64,000 bases of DNA from Thermoanaerobaculia bacterium (lineage in GTDB: Bacteria > Acidobacteriota > Thermoanaerobaculia > Multivoradales > Multivoraceae). Positions 31,171 to 36,477 of the stretch are shown here, piece after piece (within the stretch, counting starts at the first letter, position 1; each line of letters begins with the position of its first letter). The DNA lies in contig OY761158.1 of assembly GCA_963664405.1 (NCBI GenBank), positions 6,240,001-6,304,000 on the forward strand, written 5' to 3'. A program made the position numbers and the translations under genes. Below the pieces are notes generated by a model. The model worked only from the letters and a program-made list of their open reading frames with translations, was not told the DNA's origin and made no database searches.

Positions 31171-32191
31171 GCGCGATCTACGCCGAGCGGCGGCCTGCGT
31201 CACACTGGTGGTGGCGGGTTGCGGTACCGAGCCGGTCTCGATCGATTCTTCGTTCGAGGACGCAGCCGCTCTCTTCGAACAGAGAACTCCCGGAGCGCTG
31301 ACCGAGAGTTTCGATCTCTTCGAGGATATTGTTGAGCGCGAGCCCGATAACGCATTAGCGCACGCCGGAGTCGCCTCTAGCGGCTGCCTGCTTGCCCTCT
31401 ACTCGGTTGTCGAGCCTGGCCAGGTCTTGCCGCGGGCACGTCAGGCCGCTGAGGAGGCTCTGCGTCTCGACCCCACTCTGTCTGAAGCTCACTCCGCGCT
31501 CGGCCTCGTCGACTACCTTTACGCCTGGGACTGGCAGAGCGCCGAGGCCCGATTCCGTACGGCACTCGATCTCGACCCGGCCAGCGCCACAGCGTGGCAT
31601 TGGTATGGCATGTTGCTGACCGCGCTCGGCCGCACCGAGGAGGCGGTGGCGGCGCTCGACCGGGCGGCGGAGCTCGCTCCGGAGTCGCGGATCATTCAGG
31701 CAAAGCGGGGTACGGTACTGACCGCCGCCGGTCGTTACGAGGAGGCGCAGGCCCAGCTCGCTCACGCCGCCGAGAAGTTCCCGACTCTGGCTCTGCCTCA
31801 TCGTGAGCTCGGATTTCTCTACCTCGAGCTCGAGCGCTACGAAGACGCCGTGGCGGCTTTCGAGCGCGCCGCGGAGCTCGCCGGGGGAGCTTCTAAGTCC
31901 ACCGGGGGGCTCGGCTATGCCTATGCCGTGGTCGGCGAGGAGGAACGGGCGCGGAAGGTGCTCGATGTGTTTCTCGAGCGCTCGCGTTCGGGCTTTGTTC
32001 CACCGATGTATCTAGCTCTCATGTATGCGGGGCTCGGCGAGACCGATGAGGCCTTCCGCTGGCTCGAGCGGGCCCATGAGATGCATGACCCCGGGCTCGT
32101 CTACCTCGCGATCAAGCCAGGGTTCGAGAGCCTTCGCACGGATCCCCGCTTCGTGGAACTGGCAGAGCGGATAGGCCTCGATCCTCCCTAG
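31148..32191 (+). CDS. TPR-repeat protein, possible lipoprotein
   Basis: VAGC lipobox; WDW..AE..F..AL.L.P repeats; LR.DPRF..L...IGL tail. Confidence 0.85.
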   Translation: MTGLKRAERDLRRAAACVTLVVAGCGTEPVSIDSSFEDAAALFEQRTPGALTESFDLFEDIVEREPDNALAHAGVASSGCLLALYSVVEPGQVLPRARQAAEEALRLDPTLSEAHSALGLVDYLYAWDWQSAEARFRTALDLDPASATAWHWYGMLLTALGRTEEAVAALDRAAELAPESRIIQAKRGTVLTAAGRYEEAQAQLAHAAEKFPTLALPHRELGFLYLELERYEDAVAAFERAAELAGGASKSTGGLGYAYAVVGEEERARKVLDVFLERSRSGFVPPMYLALMYAGLGETDEAFRWLERAHEMHDPGLVYLAIKPGFESLRTDPRFVELAERIGLDPP

Positions 32192-32420
32192 GCTCCAGAA
32201 ATGATGGCTATCATTTCCTCCGCTGGGCGCGCCCCGCCTAGTTGTCTTTTGGCGCCGAGGACGGCGCACTTGGGCGTTGCTTCCTATTCGCTCACGGAAA
32301 CGGCTCTGGCCGAATACTCGGACACGCTCCTAGCCCCAGAAAACGCGCCTTCGGCCCGTTTTCCGGCCCATCCCCGCCTGAGAACTACTCGCCTGTCCGA
32401 ATTCTCGGACAGGCTCCTAG
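32188..32420. repeat. CTAG-delimited repeat mosaic (family B)
   Basis: Four CTAG sites; CCGAAT(A/T)CTCGGACA(C/G)GCTCCTAG twice; 32334-32395 recurs around the IS21 site. Confidence 0.7.
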
Positions 32421-32804
32421 ACCAGCGTTTCCAAAGTAGCGCTACATATCTCGGCCCGTTCTGCCCCGCTGGCGGCGTTGCGCCTCCTCGACATATTGAA
32501 TAGGGTTGTTTGCGGAGTCGCGGAGCGATTCCGTCAACGGCGTGTTGAACGAAGCCGCGGGATCGAAGCGAGGACCTATGTGGATTGTTCGGTGATCAGG
32601 AGCCGTCGGGCGGCGCCGGCGTCGAGGTATCGAGGGTCGAAGGCGCGAGTCTCGTCGAGGAAGAGGCTGGGAAGCTCGAGATGGGGGGAGCTGACAGAGT
32701 GCCGAGGCGGGTCATCGCAATCTCAGACGGAGGTAGAGATAGAGGTGTCCTAGGCCATCTAGGGTCGGACGGCGAGAACGCCACAGATCTACGAGGCAGG
32801 TGGT

Positions 32805-34001
32805 TCATGGTGATCGTGCCCTGCTCGAAACGGGCGAGGGAGGTTGGTAAGCGGGCAGGTCTTGCTTGATGACGAGATGGCCCTTGCGGCACTTCGGACA
32901 CAGGGTCACGTCTTCGCCGGTGAGTCGCTGGAGGAGCTGTTGCCAGGTTTCAAGCGGCGGCGTGGCTGTGGTCTGATCGGTGTACGCCGCCATGCCGCCT
33001 AGCAGCTGCCTGCACAATGGAATGAGCTTGCGTTTGAGCGGGTTGGCAAGCAGTCCGTAGTGTCGAATTCTCATGAAGCCCTTGGGTAGGACGTGGAGGA
33101 GGAAGCGCCGGATGAATTCTCCTGCGTCGACACGCAGGAGCTTGGTTTGGTTGCCGTGGGCTCGGTCTCTCCATCGGAAAGTGACCTGACCTTTCTCGAG
33201 TGAGACCAGACGGCTGTTGGAGATAGCGACGCAGTGGGTATATCGCCCGAGATATTTCAGGACGCGCTCTGGACCGCCGAAGGGCGGCTTGCTGTAGACG
33301 ACCCATTTCTTCTGCGCCGCCTTGCGAAGCAGCGGGCGATCGTCCGAGCGGATCACGCCCTCCCGAAGAGCCCGCTCGAGCTTTTGTAGGAGCTTGCCCC
33401 GAAAGACGGTAGCGAGGACTCGGACCGAGAAGAGAAAACGCGGTTTCGTCGCGACCCACCGGGTGCCGTCGGGGTCGAGGCCTCCTCCGGTCACGATGCA
33501 GTGGAGGTGAGGGTGATAGAGGAGCTTCTGCGTCCAGGTATGCAGGATGACCGAGAAGCCAATCTTCGCTCCGAGGTTCTTGGGTCGCAAGGCGACCTCG
33601 CGAAGAGTCTCAGCCGCGGCGGCAAAGAGCAGCTTGTAGGCCGGCTTGGGATCGGCGAGAAAGATCGGGTGCAGGACGTCGGGCACCGTGAAAACGACGT
33701 GGTGGTACTCGGTGGGCAGTAGCGCGTCTCGCTGGGCCTCGACCCAGCGCGCCTGCTCGAGGTGCTGACACTTGGGGCAGTGACGGTTGCGGCAGCTGTT
33801 GTAGGAAGCCAGCACGTGGCCGCAGGTGTCACATTCGTGCAGATGTCCACCGAGGGCAGCGGTTCTGCAGGCGGTAATGTCCCGGACCACACGCGCCCTC
33901 GGGTCGCTCAAGGCGGGGAGCCGACCGGCATGCTCTCGGAAGATGTCGGCGAGCTCCAGACTCGAGCGGCCGGCGCGGCGCCGGCTCGCTGGACAGTGCA
34001 C
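32805..34001 (-). CDS. IS91-family rolling-circle transposase
   Basis: CRT..LGG, YNSCRNRHCPKCQ, HPHLH (HUH), YLGRY and RFLLHVLP.GF.RIRHYG motifs. Confidence 0.95.
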   Translation of the reverse strand: MHCPASRRRAGRSSLELADIFREHAGRLPALSDPRARVVRDITACRTAALGGHLHECDTCGHVLASYNSCRNRHCPKCQHLEQARWVEAQRDALLPTEYHHVVFTVPDVLHPIFLADPKPAYKLLFAAAAETLREVALRPKNLGAKIGFSVILHTWTQKLLYHPHLHCIVTGGGLDPDGTRWVATKPRFLFSVRVLATVFRGKLLQKLERALREGVIRSDDRPLLRKAAQKKWVVYSKPPFGGPERVLKYLGRYTHCVAISNSRLVSLEKGQVTFRWRDRAHGNQTKLLRVDAGEFIRRFLLHVLPKGFMRIRHYGLLANPLKRKLIPLCRQLLGGMAAYTDQTTATPPLETWQQLLQRLTGEDVTLCPKCRKGHLVIKQDLPAYQPPSPVSSRARSP

Positions 34002-34004
34002 GGC

Positions 34005-34868
34005 TCAGCCGGTGCTGTGCGACCGGCTCTTGGGATCTGGGAGAAGATCCAGAGGACAGGGTGTCTCGTCGAGGAAATCGCTGGCAACATGGGTGTAGAC
34101 CTGTGTCGAGCGCAGGCTCGTGTGGCCCAGCAGAATCTGGATCTTCCGGAGATTGACGCCGCTCTCGAGCAAGTGGGTCGCGAAGCTGTGTCGCAAAGTG
34201 TGCACGGACACCTTCTTGGTGATCCCTGCCGCCTCCCTTGCCTTATGGAAGACCAGCTCGACGCTGCTGCGAGTCAGATGTCGAGGTGGAGTCTGACCAG
34301 GAAAGAGCCAGTCCTGAGGCCGCGTGGTCTTCCAATACTCACGAAGAACGGTGAGCAGTCTCTCGGAGAGCATCACGTAGCGATCCTTGCGGCCTTTTCC
34401 CTGCTCGATGCGTAGCATCATGCGCTGAGAGTCGATGTCGGAGACTCGCAAGGCCACGACCTCCGAGACCCGTAGCCCAGCGGCGTAGACGGTCGCCAGG
34501 ATGGCTCGGTGTTTGAGATTCGTCAGCGCATCTAGAATGGCTGCCACCTCTTGCTGGCTCAAAACCACCGGGAGTTTCCTTCGGGTTTTCTGGTAGGGAA
34601 TCCGGCCGATGTCCCAGCTCTTGTGCAGGGTGACGCCGTAAAAGAAACGAAGAGCCCCCACGGACTGGTTGAACACCGCCCACGAGACCTTGCGCTCACG
34701 GGTCAGATGAAGTTGGTAACGATGGATCTCGTCGAGGCCGAGCTCGTTAGGTGGGCGCATGTAGTAACGAACAAACTCCTTGACCCGACCGAGGTAGCAC
34801 TGCTGAGTATTAGGACTGAAGCCGCGAATCTCCATGTCCTCCTCCATACGCTGGCGAAACTCTCCCAT
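34005..34868 (-). CDS. Tyrosine recombinase/integrase
   Basis: GLRVSE, GKG.KDR, HTLRHSFATHLLE and LGH....T..Y catalytic set. Confidence 0.95.
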   Translation of the reverse strand: MGEFRQRMEEDMEIRGFSPNTQQCYLGRVKEFVRYYMRPPNELGLDEIHRYQLHLTRERKVSWAVFNQSVGALRFFYGVTLHKSWDIGRIPYQKTRRKLPVVLSQQEVAAILDALTNLKHRAILATVYAAGLRVSEVVALRVSDIDSQRMMLRIEQGKGRKDRYVMLSERLLTVLREYWKTTRPQDWLFPGQTPPRHLTRSSVELVFHKAREAAGITKKVSVHTLRHSFATHLLESGVNLRKIQILLGHTSLRSTQVYTHVASDFLDETPCPLDLLPDPKSRSHSTG

Positions 34869-35118
34869 CACGCTCTCCTTTTCCTGCACCGGTCGCCCCA
34901 ACATGGGACGGACCTGAGGTTTCAGGAGAACCTATCGGTAGCGCGACAAACGGCAGCCAAAGGACCGCAGAGTCGAGGGCTCGTCGACGGCTGACCGGAC
35001 GCCTCGGTCTCCACCGCGTTAGCGGTTTCGTTCATTCCCCAATATGCCTACGTCGGCGCGCCTTGCCAGCGAACAGAATGACCGCGAGCTATTGTAGCGC
35101 GACTTTGGAAACGCTGGT

Positions 35119-36477
35119 CTAGTCGATGTAGCCGAGCTCCTTCAGATCCTCGACGGTATCTTGGTCGAGCACTTCTTGGGCCGGCGCCACTGGCCGCAGA
35201 TTGGCGTGCCACTCTGCGAGAAGGGCTTGCATCCTGGCTACCTGCTCGCCCTCACTTGCAGCAATGTTCTTCTTCTCGGCCGGGTCCTGGACCAGATCGT
35301 AGAGCTCGGTCGCAGTGCCCTCGAGATGAGTGATGAGCTTGTATCTGTCGGTGCGCACCGCCACCGAGCTGGTGTGCTCGGAGACCACGTAAGGGCGTGC
35401 CTCAGGCCTTTGCCCTCCGCGAATCCAGGGTAGAAGGCTGCGTCTGGCGGCTGACTCGTCCAGCTCGGCCCCTGCGGCCTCGAGCAGGGTTGGCACGAGG
35501 TCACGCAATTCGGCGAGCGAGCTCTGCTCTGATCCTGGGGCAGTGCCCCAGCCCACCGGCGGCTTGAACACCAGCGGAACCGAGATCAACTCGTCGTGGA
35601 GCGAGCCCCCATGCCCCATGTGGCCGTGCTCGAAAAACTCCTCTCCGTGGTCGCTGGTGAGGACGATCAGGGTGTCGTCCCAGAGACCGCGCTCGCGGAG
35701 GGAGGCGATGAGGCCGCCCATGCTGCGGTCGAAGCCGAGAATCTCTTCGTCGTAACGCGCCTCCATCGCCTCGAGCTCCTCGGCGCTCAGAACCACAGCT
35801 CCGGAGCGCAGATCGGTGCGCAGCTTCCGCCACTGGTGGCAGAAGGAGCGACCTTCGTAGTCGGCAGTGAAGGTGCCTTTGACGCCCTCGGGCGGGCAGT
35901 ACGGCCAGTGAAGCTCCAGGTAGTGCAGATAGGCGAAGAAAGGTCGCCGCGGCTCGCTCTCGAGCCATTCCAGAAAGCGCTTGTTGATGCGAGAGGCCTT
36001 GGCCGATTTGTGATTGTAGAAGTCGAAGCCCTGGTTGAGTCCGAATTTCGGGGCCAGCTGGCCCTGCTCGCCGACCAGGGCGGTGGCATAGCCGACTGCC
36101 CCGAGGCCCTCCGCGATCGTAACCGCCGCCTCGGAGAGGCGCGCTCCGGAGTGCTCGCCTTCTCCGGCCACGAAGCCGGCGAGTTGGTGCTCTGAGGGGT
36201 AGAGCCCGGTGAGGATCGTTGGCACTGAAGGCCGGGTCCAGGGAGCTTGTGAGAAGGCGGAGGTGAAGCGAATGCCCTCTTCGACCAGGATGTCGAGATT
36301 CGGCGTCAGAGCGCGCCGGTAGGGGTGCGGAGCCGCGAAGCGATCGCCTCGCAGACAGTCGACCAGGAGTACGAGTATGTTCGGCGGCGGTGTCGGTTCC
36401 GGCGGTACCTCCTGACGGCACGCGGCTGATGAGAGCGACGCTAGGAGGAGGGCGGCAGAAGCAGGTGAAAATCTCAA
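35119..36477 (-). CDS. Sulfatase-like hydrolase/transferase lipoprotein
   Basis: VDCLR.D, APWTRPS..TILTG, SDHGEEF.EHG and ELYDL..DP.E motifs; LKELGY tail. Confidence 0.9.
   Translation of the reverse strand: MRFSPASAALLLASLSSAACRQEVPPEPTPPPNILVLLVDCLRGDRFAAPHPYRRALTPNLDILVEEGIRFTSAFSQAPWTRPSVPTILTGLYPSEHQLAGFVAGEGEHSGARLSEAAVTIAEGLGAVGYATALVGEQGQLAPKFGLNQGFDFYNHKSAKASRINKRFLEWLESEPRRPFFAYLHYLELHWPYCPPEGVKGTFTADYEGRSFCHQWRKLRTDLRSGAVVLSAEELEAMEARYDEEILGFDRSMGGLIASLRERGLWDDTLIVLTSDHGEEFFEHGHMGHGGSLHDELISVPLVFKPPVGWGTAPGSEQSSLAELRDLVPTLLEAAGAELDESAARRSLLPWIRGGQRPEARPYVVSEHTSSVAVRTDRYKLITHLEGTATELYDLVQDPAEKKNIAASEGEQVARMQALLAEWHANLRPVAPAQEVLDQDTVEDLKELGYID

Follow-up and report, generated by a model that had tools for sequence, protein, structure and literature searches.

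An IS91-family element with an IntI/Xer-like recombinase gene at the apex of a MITE hairpin: conserved ends, predicted joined-end fold and probable target shape

Introduction

How does a rolling-circle insertion sequence (IS) that also encodes a tyrosine recombinase come to lie exactly at the tip of a hairpin-forming repeat, and which of its two enzymes joins it to such a target? The question arises from a 64,000-nucleotide stretch of DNA (the window) from a Thermoanaerobaculia bacterium (GenBank assembly GCA_963664405.1, contig OY761158.1, positions 6,240,001 to 6,304,000 of the forward strand), in which an IS91-family element interrupts a miniature inverted-repeat transposable element (MITE). 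An initial annotation of the window had proposed that an HUH protein encoded by the element makes a circular form, that the recombinase integrates this circle into hairpin targets supplied by a dispersed repeat, and that joining the two ends (called ori and ter, as in IS91) rebuilds a long hairpin. Positions below are those of the window unless they are assigned to the genome or to another locus.

Results

An intact IS91-family element interrupts a MITE at the apex of its hairpin

Positions 32498-35036 contain an intact IS91-family element of 2,539 bp, located at the apical loop of a hairpin-forming MITE of ∼169 bp (Table 1). The motifs named in the initial annotation were all found at the coordinates it gave, including the division of a CATATT-CCC-AATATG palindrome with ATT at both junctions. 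The CATATT of the target spans 32492-32497, the first letter of the element is G32498, and the far side reads ATT (35034-35036), CCCC (35037-35040), and AATATG (35041-35046). The previously suggested start of the element, 32498, was retained, whereas its end was moved from 35033 to 35036 because the end inverted repeat of relatives extends through the ATT, a comparison that places these three letters inside the ter end.

The host repeat is short, non-coding, and present in many copies, as expected of a MITE, and it has 21-bp perfect terminal inverted repeats; BLAST returned 370 matches across the genome, of which 155 were at least 150 nt long. In uninterrupted copies the two arms overlap by one ATT, and metagenome contigs of public sequencing runs that represent empty MITEs skip exactly 2,539 nt. 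When folded as single-stranded DNA, the empty MITE formed one long hairpin (−52.8 kcal/mol, z = −10.7) with an apical stem CATATT/AATATG and a CCCC loop; the insertion point is therefore the boundary between the 5′ arm and the loop of the MITE hairpin. No target duplication was found, with a single ATT in the empty MITEs and a single core in the tandem joints of two related families (F6 and P2). We considered ATT as a target duplication and disfavor it because the tandem joints of relatives hold only one core. The DNA directly to the left of the MITE (32200-32416) is made up of two or more further families of dispersed repeats that have dozens of matches in the genome, some of them in tandem (e.g., near 1.965 Mb).

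The transposase matched the Pfam families Y2_Tnp (9.3e-61) and Zn_Tnp_IS91 (1.5e-28), that is, an HUH-Y2 enzyme with an N-terminal zinc domain, and it scored 429 bits against the NCBIfam IS91 model NF033538 (cut-off of 125). Its H163-P-H165-x-H167 and Y250-x3-Y254 motifs are unchanged in comparison to a paralogue in the same genome (family B, about 46-48% identical). The recombinase matched Phage_integrase (4.6e-44, catalytic domain) and SAM_4 (1.2e-19, N-domain), and its residues R145, K170, H235, R238, H261, and Y270 are likewise all unchanged in family B. It scored above the cut-off of the XerA model (228 versus 220 bits) and below that of the integron-integrase model TIGR02249 (205.9 versus 265, with the match split into two stretches), and the closest solved structure is the Vibrio integron integrase IntI4 (2a3v; E = 2.3e-36, also in two stretches). 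The TIGR02249 score and the IntI4 comparison confirm an earlier caveat that the recombinase lacks the full IntI-specific insertion. On the basis of the domain and model scores and the invariant catalytic residues, which bear out the recombinase and the IS91 rolling-circle assignment of the initial annotation, we are confident that this is an insertion sequence of an IS91 subgroup with an IntI/Xer-like recombinase gene just upstream of the HUH-Y2 transposase gene. A search of 32100-35400 against Rfam with E values up to 1 gave zero matches.

The gene pair and both ends are conserved in relatives

Relatives of the transposase were sought in one genome per species, and the counts that follow cover the matches listed. 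Among these, 589 of 600 candidate stretches encode transposase relatives. The best 80 relatives come from many phyla, and 72 of them have a recombinase match directly upstream. Three of the other eight possess a ter motif about 960-976 nt ahead of tnpA; the upstream gene is therefore probably present at these loci as well, which leaves no clean recombinase-less control. The closest relative (L038) encodes a transposase and a recombinase that are 65% and 75% identical, respectively, to those described here.

The two ends are unlike, as is typical of IS91, with a palindrome beside the ter end and a hairpin at the ori end, and both features are kept in relatives. On the gene strand, the first letters of the relatives are of the (T)TGAACGAA type, and a small palindrome (CCGC-loop-GCGG) comes next. 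Of the 52 loci whose upstream sequence reaches at least 250 nt, 49 have this ter start motif. Beyond tnpA, a CCATAG box precedes an inverted copy of the start motif, after which come a long hairpin and a short terminal stretch. The sequence of the long ori hairpin varies by family and its pairing is retained, consistent with covariation. The internal copy of the ter terminus lies 47-130 nt inside the ori end across families and 47 nt inside it in this element, where TGAACGAAGCCGC (32546-32558) and GCGGTTTCGTTCA (35022-35034) are complementary at 12 of 13 positions, the odd position being a T·G wobble on the + strand.

Taken alone, this end inverted repeat is roughly a 1e-4 chance event by our own arithmetic; it recurs in 39 distinct relatives. 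Comparison of the ter repeat with the internal ori copy within these 39 distinct elements revealed 504 matches at 585 positions versus 444.7 with shuffled partners, and none of 5000 shuffles reached the observed value in a test of a kind that relatedness inflates. The three letters past GAAC match at 92 of 117 positions (61.4 when shuffled), with all three identical in 23 of the 39 elements. Compensating changes pair GAAC with GTTC, GGAC with GTCC, and GCAC with GTGC, and the commonest disagreement (25 of 81) is a T·G wobble on the gene-antisense strand, mostly at one inherited position.

Head-to-tail tandem copies with a single core at the joint are found in two families (L099, 3237-8630; L106, 1000-6016, along with L153 and L154). 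Some tandem copies have an extra partial ori end in front, as is expected of rolling-circle products. At locus L123, the ori end is followed in the right flank by a mini joint that consists of the core and then a fusion of the ter start with the last 10 ori letters; this arrangement may be the footprint of recombination between GAACG motifs of tandem copies.

Joined ends are predicted to fold into a conserved hairpin

Joined ends were built in a script from the last 20-45 letters of ter and the first 150-170 letters of ori, and they were folded as DNA for 11 families whose ends had been fixed from at least two copies. In 10 of the 11 families (F4 being the exception), the ter terminus pairs with the internal copy to form an outer stem that ends no more than 2 nt from the joint, and the inner hairpin comes after an unpaired stretch. 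The z-scores of these folds ranged from −2.8 to −8.5 in the 10 families and the value for this element was −3.9. The gene-antisense strand folded better than its complement in all 11 families, by 0.4 to 11.3 kcal/mol. The inner stem of this element is formed by CGGAGTCGC (32513-32521), the loop gga, and GCGATTCCG (32525-32533), and it is lengthened in the fold by GTTG/CAAC pairs (32506-32509 with 32535-32538). Judged from this one element, its parts are no more than mildly unusual: 9 of 200 shuffles fold as well as the inner hairpin (z = −1.87), and the ter palindrome has z = −2.97. The long imperfect hairpin previously foreseen for the joined ends is upheld by the conservation of the fold and by covariation in the inner hairpin. 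Together, these comparisons of sequence support a joined-end hairpin of ∼75 nt as a conserved trait, predicted on the strand that IS91-type replication would displace.

The joined ends had also been likened to attC through GTTCAAC, a match to the RYYYAAC box. For the RYYYAAC/GTTRRRY box pair expected of attC, the internal copy offers GTTGAAC (GTTCAAC on the other strand); the ter copy is GTTCATT in this element, and several relatives have GTTCAAC there. The box does not fix the crossover, however: from family to family the joint is found 1 to 13 nt past GTTC, rather than at one position inside the box as in attC, which counts against a strict parallel, and the R-box analogy is therefore loose. 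A role of GTTC as a cleavage tetranucleotide, as in IS801, was ruled out because the end lies 1-13 nt past it and ATT is part of the element here.

Short stems are enriched at the insertion point, mainly in three families

We rebuilt 48 non-redundant empty sites from 11 families, having dropped five copies with identical flanks (L132, L136, L138, L146, and L163). On the antisense strand of each site we looked for perfect stems (4 bp or longer, loop of 4-10 nt) and recorded their offset from the insertion point. Chance would place such a stem at any given offset in ∼1.8 sites; 10 of 48 had one that ended exactly at the insertion point (p = 1.2e-5) and 8 had one that ended a letter earlier (p = 3.6e-4), and the remaining 21 offsets each had 0-5 sites. 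With a tolerance of −4 to +2, stems of at least 4 bp were present in 22 of 48 sites versus 22% of background positions (p = 2.5e-4), and stems of at least 5 bp in 10 of 48 versus 7.1% (p = 0.0017). Examples are CATATT^CCCC-AATATG for this element and CGGTAAG^CCGCG-CTTATCG for family B5, where ^ marks the insertion point. Family F3 (16 copies in one genome) has CATAA, a spacer of 6-7 nt, and TTATG in most sites, plus a 28-nt palindromic repeat entered in both orientations. The six F3 copies of the latter kind (6 of 16; L129, L132, L136, L138, L140, and L146 of genome G044) are centered in a perfect 28-nt palindrome inside a larger repeat, a situation that parallels the MITE case. In the genome that contains the window, both full copies of the element and a stump (described below) hit the MITE center.

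The letters at the crossover also follow a pattern. Of the 48 sites, 29 have junction microhomology of at least 3 nt. It lies 5′ of the crossover in families A and B and extends to both sides of it in F3, F6, and F1; in these same five families the last 2-5 target letters repeat the end of ter. The letters themselves are TATT here and ATAA, TAAG, AAA, and others in relatives, rather than the GTTC or CTTG of IS91.

Several results temper a general preference for hairpins. The stem measure was chosen after families A, B, and F3 had been viewed, and these supply most of the signal; among the remaining 29 sites, 5 have a stem at offset 0 or −1, compared with ∼2.2 expected. The 10 sites of families P1-P4 and F4 show neither a stem nor microhomology. 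A hairpin-edge test based on minimum free energy was positive in 4 of 48 sites versus 8.8% of background positions, with no enrichment, and most target stems are just 4-6 bp long. Nor was a clear replication-strand bias seen among the 46 copies in genome G045 (26 versus 20 by hand count, with dnaA taken as the origin and the terminus assumed to lie opposite). The folding energy of the 60-nt flanks was barely more structured on the ori side than on the ter side. Long complementary flanks as a general rule were rejected, as only this element (A1) stands out among 41 loci (z = 16); the values for L099 and L081 were 8.8, explained by a tandem copy, and 5.7, respectively.

The earlier suggestion of hairpin or MITE targeting by other copies therefore stands in part: it holds for the two copies and the stump in this genome and for the stem peak over the 48 sites, and it fails for the five families lacking such a target and in the energy-based test. 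We conclude that the tops of inverted repeats or hairpins are probably the preferred target. Since few of the stems are strong enough to fold by themselves, the site may be recognized in double-stranded form, as arm-spacer-arm, rather than as an extruded hairpin.

In the genome of the window, 5 of 6 copies lie on the lagging-strand template as judged by GC skew, with one located at the terminus. The GC skew of this genome switches at 2.74 Mb and 6.76 Mb, which delimits unequal replichores of 4.0 and 2.7 Mb, and dnaA is located 0.68 Mb from the skew minimum. In G045, ∼70 weak matches to a DnaA model (positions of about 100-240 in open reading frames of 289 amino acids) are scattered across the chromosome and probably represent the ATPase gene of a high-copy IS (IstB-like), not DnaA.

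Copies in this genome and in other samples

The genome, a single contig of 6.78 Mb, contains a second copy of the element, 97.3% identical, which occupies an identical MITE at the same position and with the same orientation; the DNA beyond that MITE is unrelated. The two full copies differ at 0 of 170 positions in the MITE arms (0 of 80 on the left and 0 of 90 on the right), 0 of 129 in the non-coding part of ter, 3 of 900 in the recombinase gene, and 14 of 1,197 in tnpA. The non-coding stretch from the tnpA stop codon to the ori end (32498-32804, compared with genome positions 6761158-6761468) differs at 54 of 307 positions (17.6%), and the remaining element at ∼0.3-1%. Because this ori-side stretch diverges far more than the remainder, the element is a mosaic.

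A stump of 142 nt from the ori end (element positions 13-155; locus L037, genome positions 2170873-2171108) is fused to the center of a MITE half. The 12 outermost letters of the ori end are absent, as are the remainder of the element and the second MITE arm, and the stump adjoins the central CATATT of a MITE from another subfamily in the opposite MITE orientation. The stump is an independent insertion.

The public-run data consist of assembled contigs only, and the runs listed as containing the element include none of RNA. In two other samples, the contig of the element, which carries the second-copy (A2-type) version of the ori-side non-coding stretch, departs from the MITE 6-7 nt past the ori end and 10-27 nt past the ter end. 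The depths of these contigs were 42 and 36, compared with 6.5 and 3.9 for the unique-flank contig, values that are not copy numbers. These departures from the MITE are a weak hint of several different MITE hosts or events. Among 40 related genomes we found no other copy of the element, only weak partial matches with at most 83% identity over at most 444 nt.

Family B, in the same genome as the element, is 2.6 kb in length, has five copies (Table 1) with ends of its own, and encodes a recombinase that is 42-43% identical. Three of the right flanks of family B contain similar GTCG...CGAC hairpin repeats located 17-25 nt from the ori end.

Table 1. Features of the element, its host MITE, and the family B copies. 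Positions refer to the window except for family B, for which they refer to the genome (G000).
Feature	Position	Strand	Remarks
Left MITE arm	32417-32497		Terminal inverted repeat CTAGACCAGCGTTTCCAAAGT at the outer end; CATATT (5′ arm of the apical stem) at the inner end
Whole element	32498-35036	+	+ strand reads 5′-ori end ... ter end-3′, antisense of both genes; second copy 97.3% identical; 2,539 nt skipped in contigs/empty MITEs
First letters of ori end, GAATAGGGTTGTTTG	32498-32512	+	Mostly unpaired in the joined-end fold; similar unpaired stretch after the joint in other families
Inner hairpin of ori end	32513-32533	+	9-bp stem, loop GGA; hairpin of unrelated sequence at the same place in relatives
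Internal inverted copy of ter terminus, GTTGAACGAAGCCGC	32544-32558	+	3′ arm of the outer stem once joined
CCATAG-type box, CCACATAGG on the gene strand	32575-32583	-	∼20 nt before the internal repeat; present in 7 of 7 elements compared
tnpA, IS91-family HUH-Y2 transposase, 398 amino acids	32805-34001	-	Pfam, NCBIfam
Tyrosine recombinase, IntI/Xer-like, 299 amino acids	34005-34904	-	Stop codon 3 nt ahead of the tnpA start
Subterminal palindrome of ter end, ACCGC-GTTA-GCGGT	35013-35026	+	10 nt from the end; −5.5 kcal/mol, z = −2.97; A-T to G-C covariation in relatives
Ter terminus, GCGGTTTCGTTCATT	35022-35036	+	5′ arm of the outer stem when joined; final three letters equal the ATT of the target
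Right MITE arm	35037-35122		Begins with loop CCCC and 3′ arm AATATG; ends in the terminal inverted repeat
Family B copy L031	34929-36983		Genome G000
Family B copy L032	41783-43834		Genome G000
Family B copy L033	596986-599040		Genome G000
Family B copy L034	615250-617304		Genome G000
Family B copy L035	887305-889359		Genome G000

Discussion

Proposed route of movement and the evidence that bears on it

We propose a route whose opening step is modeled on IS91. The HUH transposase would nick the ori end (32498 side) and peel off the + strand (5′-ori...ter-3′), which would be closed after ...GTTCATT (35036) to yield a single-stranded circle. In this circle the last 13-15 letters of ter would pair with the inverted copy situated 47 nt inside ori; the conserved fold is observed and we infer its formation in the cell. 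The joint would then be positioned at the top of the outer stem, followed by the unpaired stretch and the inner hairpin, in a shape that resembles attC with its R box, spacer, and inner stem. The circle would be joined to a like-shaped target that shares 2-5 crossover letters, at the 3′ end of the 5′ arm of a short inverted repeat, a geometry observed directly for the family of this element and statistically across its relatives. The recombinase would catalyze the joining, as IntI joins a folded attC to a second site, using single-stranded DNA supplied by the transposase.

We judge this division of labor, in which the recombinase integrates a circle supplied by the HUH transposase, to fall just short of an even chance. 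Integration by the recombinase would explain why an intact recombinase gene is nearly universal, why homology is found on both sides of the crossover, why the crossover lies at the arm/spacer boundary, and why stable hairpins are not needed at the target. The integron integrase as closest solved relative of the recombinase and the tandem single-core copies in two families also count in its favor. Other observations pull the opposite way. The attC-reading insertion specific to IntI is missing, with residues 181-239 of IntI4 lying opposite just 17 residues of the recombinase. The contigs of four public runs listed no ter-to-ori joint of the element, in data where contigs drop rare forms and 193 loose ends lie outside view. 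According to the accessible portion of PMC13181058, IS91 itself needs no enzyme besides its transposase. The ATT at both junctions, to which the initial annotation had pointed, is present as described; its value as a pointer is weakened because the ordinary IS91 rule that target letters resemble the ter end, as given in the same portion of that source, also produces it.

The latter points are at home in a different explanation, in which the HUH-Y2 transposase performs all of the DNA chemistry: it would cut single-stranded DNA immediately 3′ of a stem, both in ter and in targets that resemble it, and then swap strands. The recombinase would have another job, such as resolving tandem or dimer products, assisting in the recognition of ter like Orf121 in IS91, or handling a double-stranded circle. 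Beyond the sufficiency of TnpA for IS91 and the resemblance of its target tetranucleotide to the ter cleavage site (accessible portion of PMC13181058), this explanation agrees with a crossover at a duplex/single-strand boundary, which suits an HUH nuclease, and with the final 2-5 target letters being a copy of the ter end in families A, B, F3, F6, and F1. Target stems too short for two recombinase monomers, a recombinase that lacks the IntI-specific domain, and tandem copies typical of rolling-circle products are additional points on its side. It leaves unexplained, however, the intact recombinase in 72 of the 80 best relatives, and it sits poorly with homology that also extends 3′ of the crossover in F6, F1, and F3, with a target that reads neither GTTC nor CTTG, and with the apparent lack of the lagging-strand bias known for fork-using HUH elements (26 versus 20). 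We regard action by the transposase alone as a serious but rather unlikely account.

Alternatively, the element may have no true preference for hairpins and instead read a short sequence (about CATATT) that happens to be found in the MITE center, with the second copy arising by means of the transposase of the MITE. Indeed, 258 of the 863 genomic CATATT sites lie in 129 MITE-type centers and TCGACATATT occurs 143 times, so that a preference for a sequence of 6-10 letters alone would often strike MITEs. The two full copies, which are oriented alike and show 0 of 170 differences in their MITE arms, may represent one event in which a MITE::IS composite was moved as a unit by the transposase of the MITE. 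Furthermore, the target of L038 is similar in sequence and is without long palindromic flanks, and the energy-based test was negative. This explanation is nevertheless hard to reconcile with the stump at the same center of a MITE of a different subfamily and in the other orientation, with the sharp stem peak at the crossover in unrelated families with unrelated sequences, or with the same arm-spacer-arm shape in F3 (CATAA, N6-7, TTATG) and B5; the contigs that leave the MITE 6-7 and 10-27 nt past the ends add the weak hint of multiple MITE hosts. We therefore consider a purely sequence-based choice of target improbable.

Finally, movement by the recombinase alone, with the element as a double-stranded circle undergoing ordinary site-specific recombination and the IS91 transposase as a passenger or inactive, would fit the arm-spacer-arm target, in which the crossover falls where arm and spacer meet, as well as the short stretches of homology at the two junctions, yet it is very improbable given that the transposase is intact (HUH and both tyrosines) and is kept with the ends in all 80 best relatives, the ori and ter ends are asymmetric as in IS91, double-stranded joined ends would place the repeats 47-130 bp apart and not form a core site, the antisense strand folds better in 11 of 11 families, and tandem copies exist.

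Returning to the proposal of a transposase-made circle that is integrated by the recombinase, we tentatively view these elements as self-copying analogues of integron cassettes, a possibility short of probable, with an HUH-made single-stranded circle, attC-like joined ends, and an IntI/Xer-like recombinase (without the IntI insertion) that would target short inverted repeats or hairpins such as MITE tips and REP-like (repetitive extragenic palindromic) repeats. The conserved anatomy, comprising the ter-ori pairing, the joint atop a stem, and targets of like shape and like letters, makes the role of the recombinase directly testable. If the recombinase does integrate HUH-made single-stranded circles, two DNA-mobility chemistries would be coupled in a new way, and this recombinase group, which uses folded single-stranded DNA in integrons and with CTX-type phages, would have a third natural use for it. 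Such integration would also explain the pile-up of such elements in hairpin repeats and would suggest a possible evolutionary link from IS91 elements to integron cassettes. For annotators, conserved "hairpin repeats" beside MITEs or cassettes may be stumps of these elements.

Comparison with known systems

Some IS91-family members (ISWz1, ISAzo26, and others; ISfinder/TnPedia) carry an upstream tyrosine recombinase gene. The element shares its gene pair and gene order with them, an arrangement that we assume for the named ISs and observed in 72 of the 80 best relatives. The literature examined, to which subscription journals and supplements did not belong, contained no published analysis of the ends, the joined-end fold, or the target shape of this subgroup. 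In the accessible portions of the papers concerned, ISWz1 is an IS91-family member with copies in a resistance region (PMC11322121), ISShvi3 is an IS91-family member that adjoins an attC site (PMC9229058), and IS91 is mentioned in general terms only (PMC7923331).

More broadly, the element resembles the IS91 family (IS91, IS801, and IS1294) in its transposase with a zinc domain, its unlike ends with subterminal palindromes, the lack of target duplication, and the occurrence of tandem copies. According to the accessible portion of PMC13181058, the ori end of these three ISs contains palindromes and their ter end has a subterminal palindrome next to the cleavage site; for IS91, it describes circles with an ori-ter joint, no target duplication, and ori-adjacent target letters that resemble the last letters of ter. 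Circles in both single- and double-stranded form are characteristic of the IS91 family. Unlike IS91, this element has an additional tyrosine recombinase gene, its ter terminus repeats, in inverted form, a sequence located well inside ori, and its target is TATT, not GTTC or CTTG, at the top of an inverted repeat.

The similarities to the IntI/attC system include IntI4 as the closest solved relative of the recombinase, joined ends predicted to form an imperfect hairpin that has an inner stem, an unpaired spacer, and a possible box pair of the GTTCAAC/GTTGAAC type, and a crossover at the inner edge of the outer stem on one strand. When a cassette integrates, its attC site is split such that one short arm lands at the far end, and the crossover takes place between the A and C of AAC. 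Integration would split the joined site of this element in a like manner, leaving one short arm at the far end. The differences from IntI are that the recombinase is without the IntI-specific domain and scores below the model cut-off, that the distance between box and crossover is variable, and that the cargo consists of the two genes of the element itself.

The IS200/IS605 elements (e.g., IS608) and the REP/RAYT systems use HUH-Y1 enzymes that act on single-stranded hairpins, and they have a strong lagging-strand bias. They share with the present element HUH chemistry, end hairpins, and insertion beside a short specific sequence without duplication; they differ in that the enzyme here is Y2 and not Y1, that their hairpin is in the element and not in the target, and that no clear bias of this kind is seen here. 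IS1397 and ISKpn1 insert in the hairpin repeats known as REP or BIME. The accessible portion of PMC9229058 mentions an IS1111-attC group of IS110. Like the present element, both groups insert at a fixed position of a hairpin that is dispersed or forms part of a recombination site; unlike it, they depend on DEDD or DDE transposases and possess neither a recombinase nor a rolling-circle enzyme.

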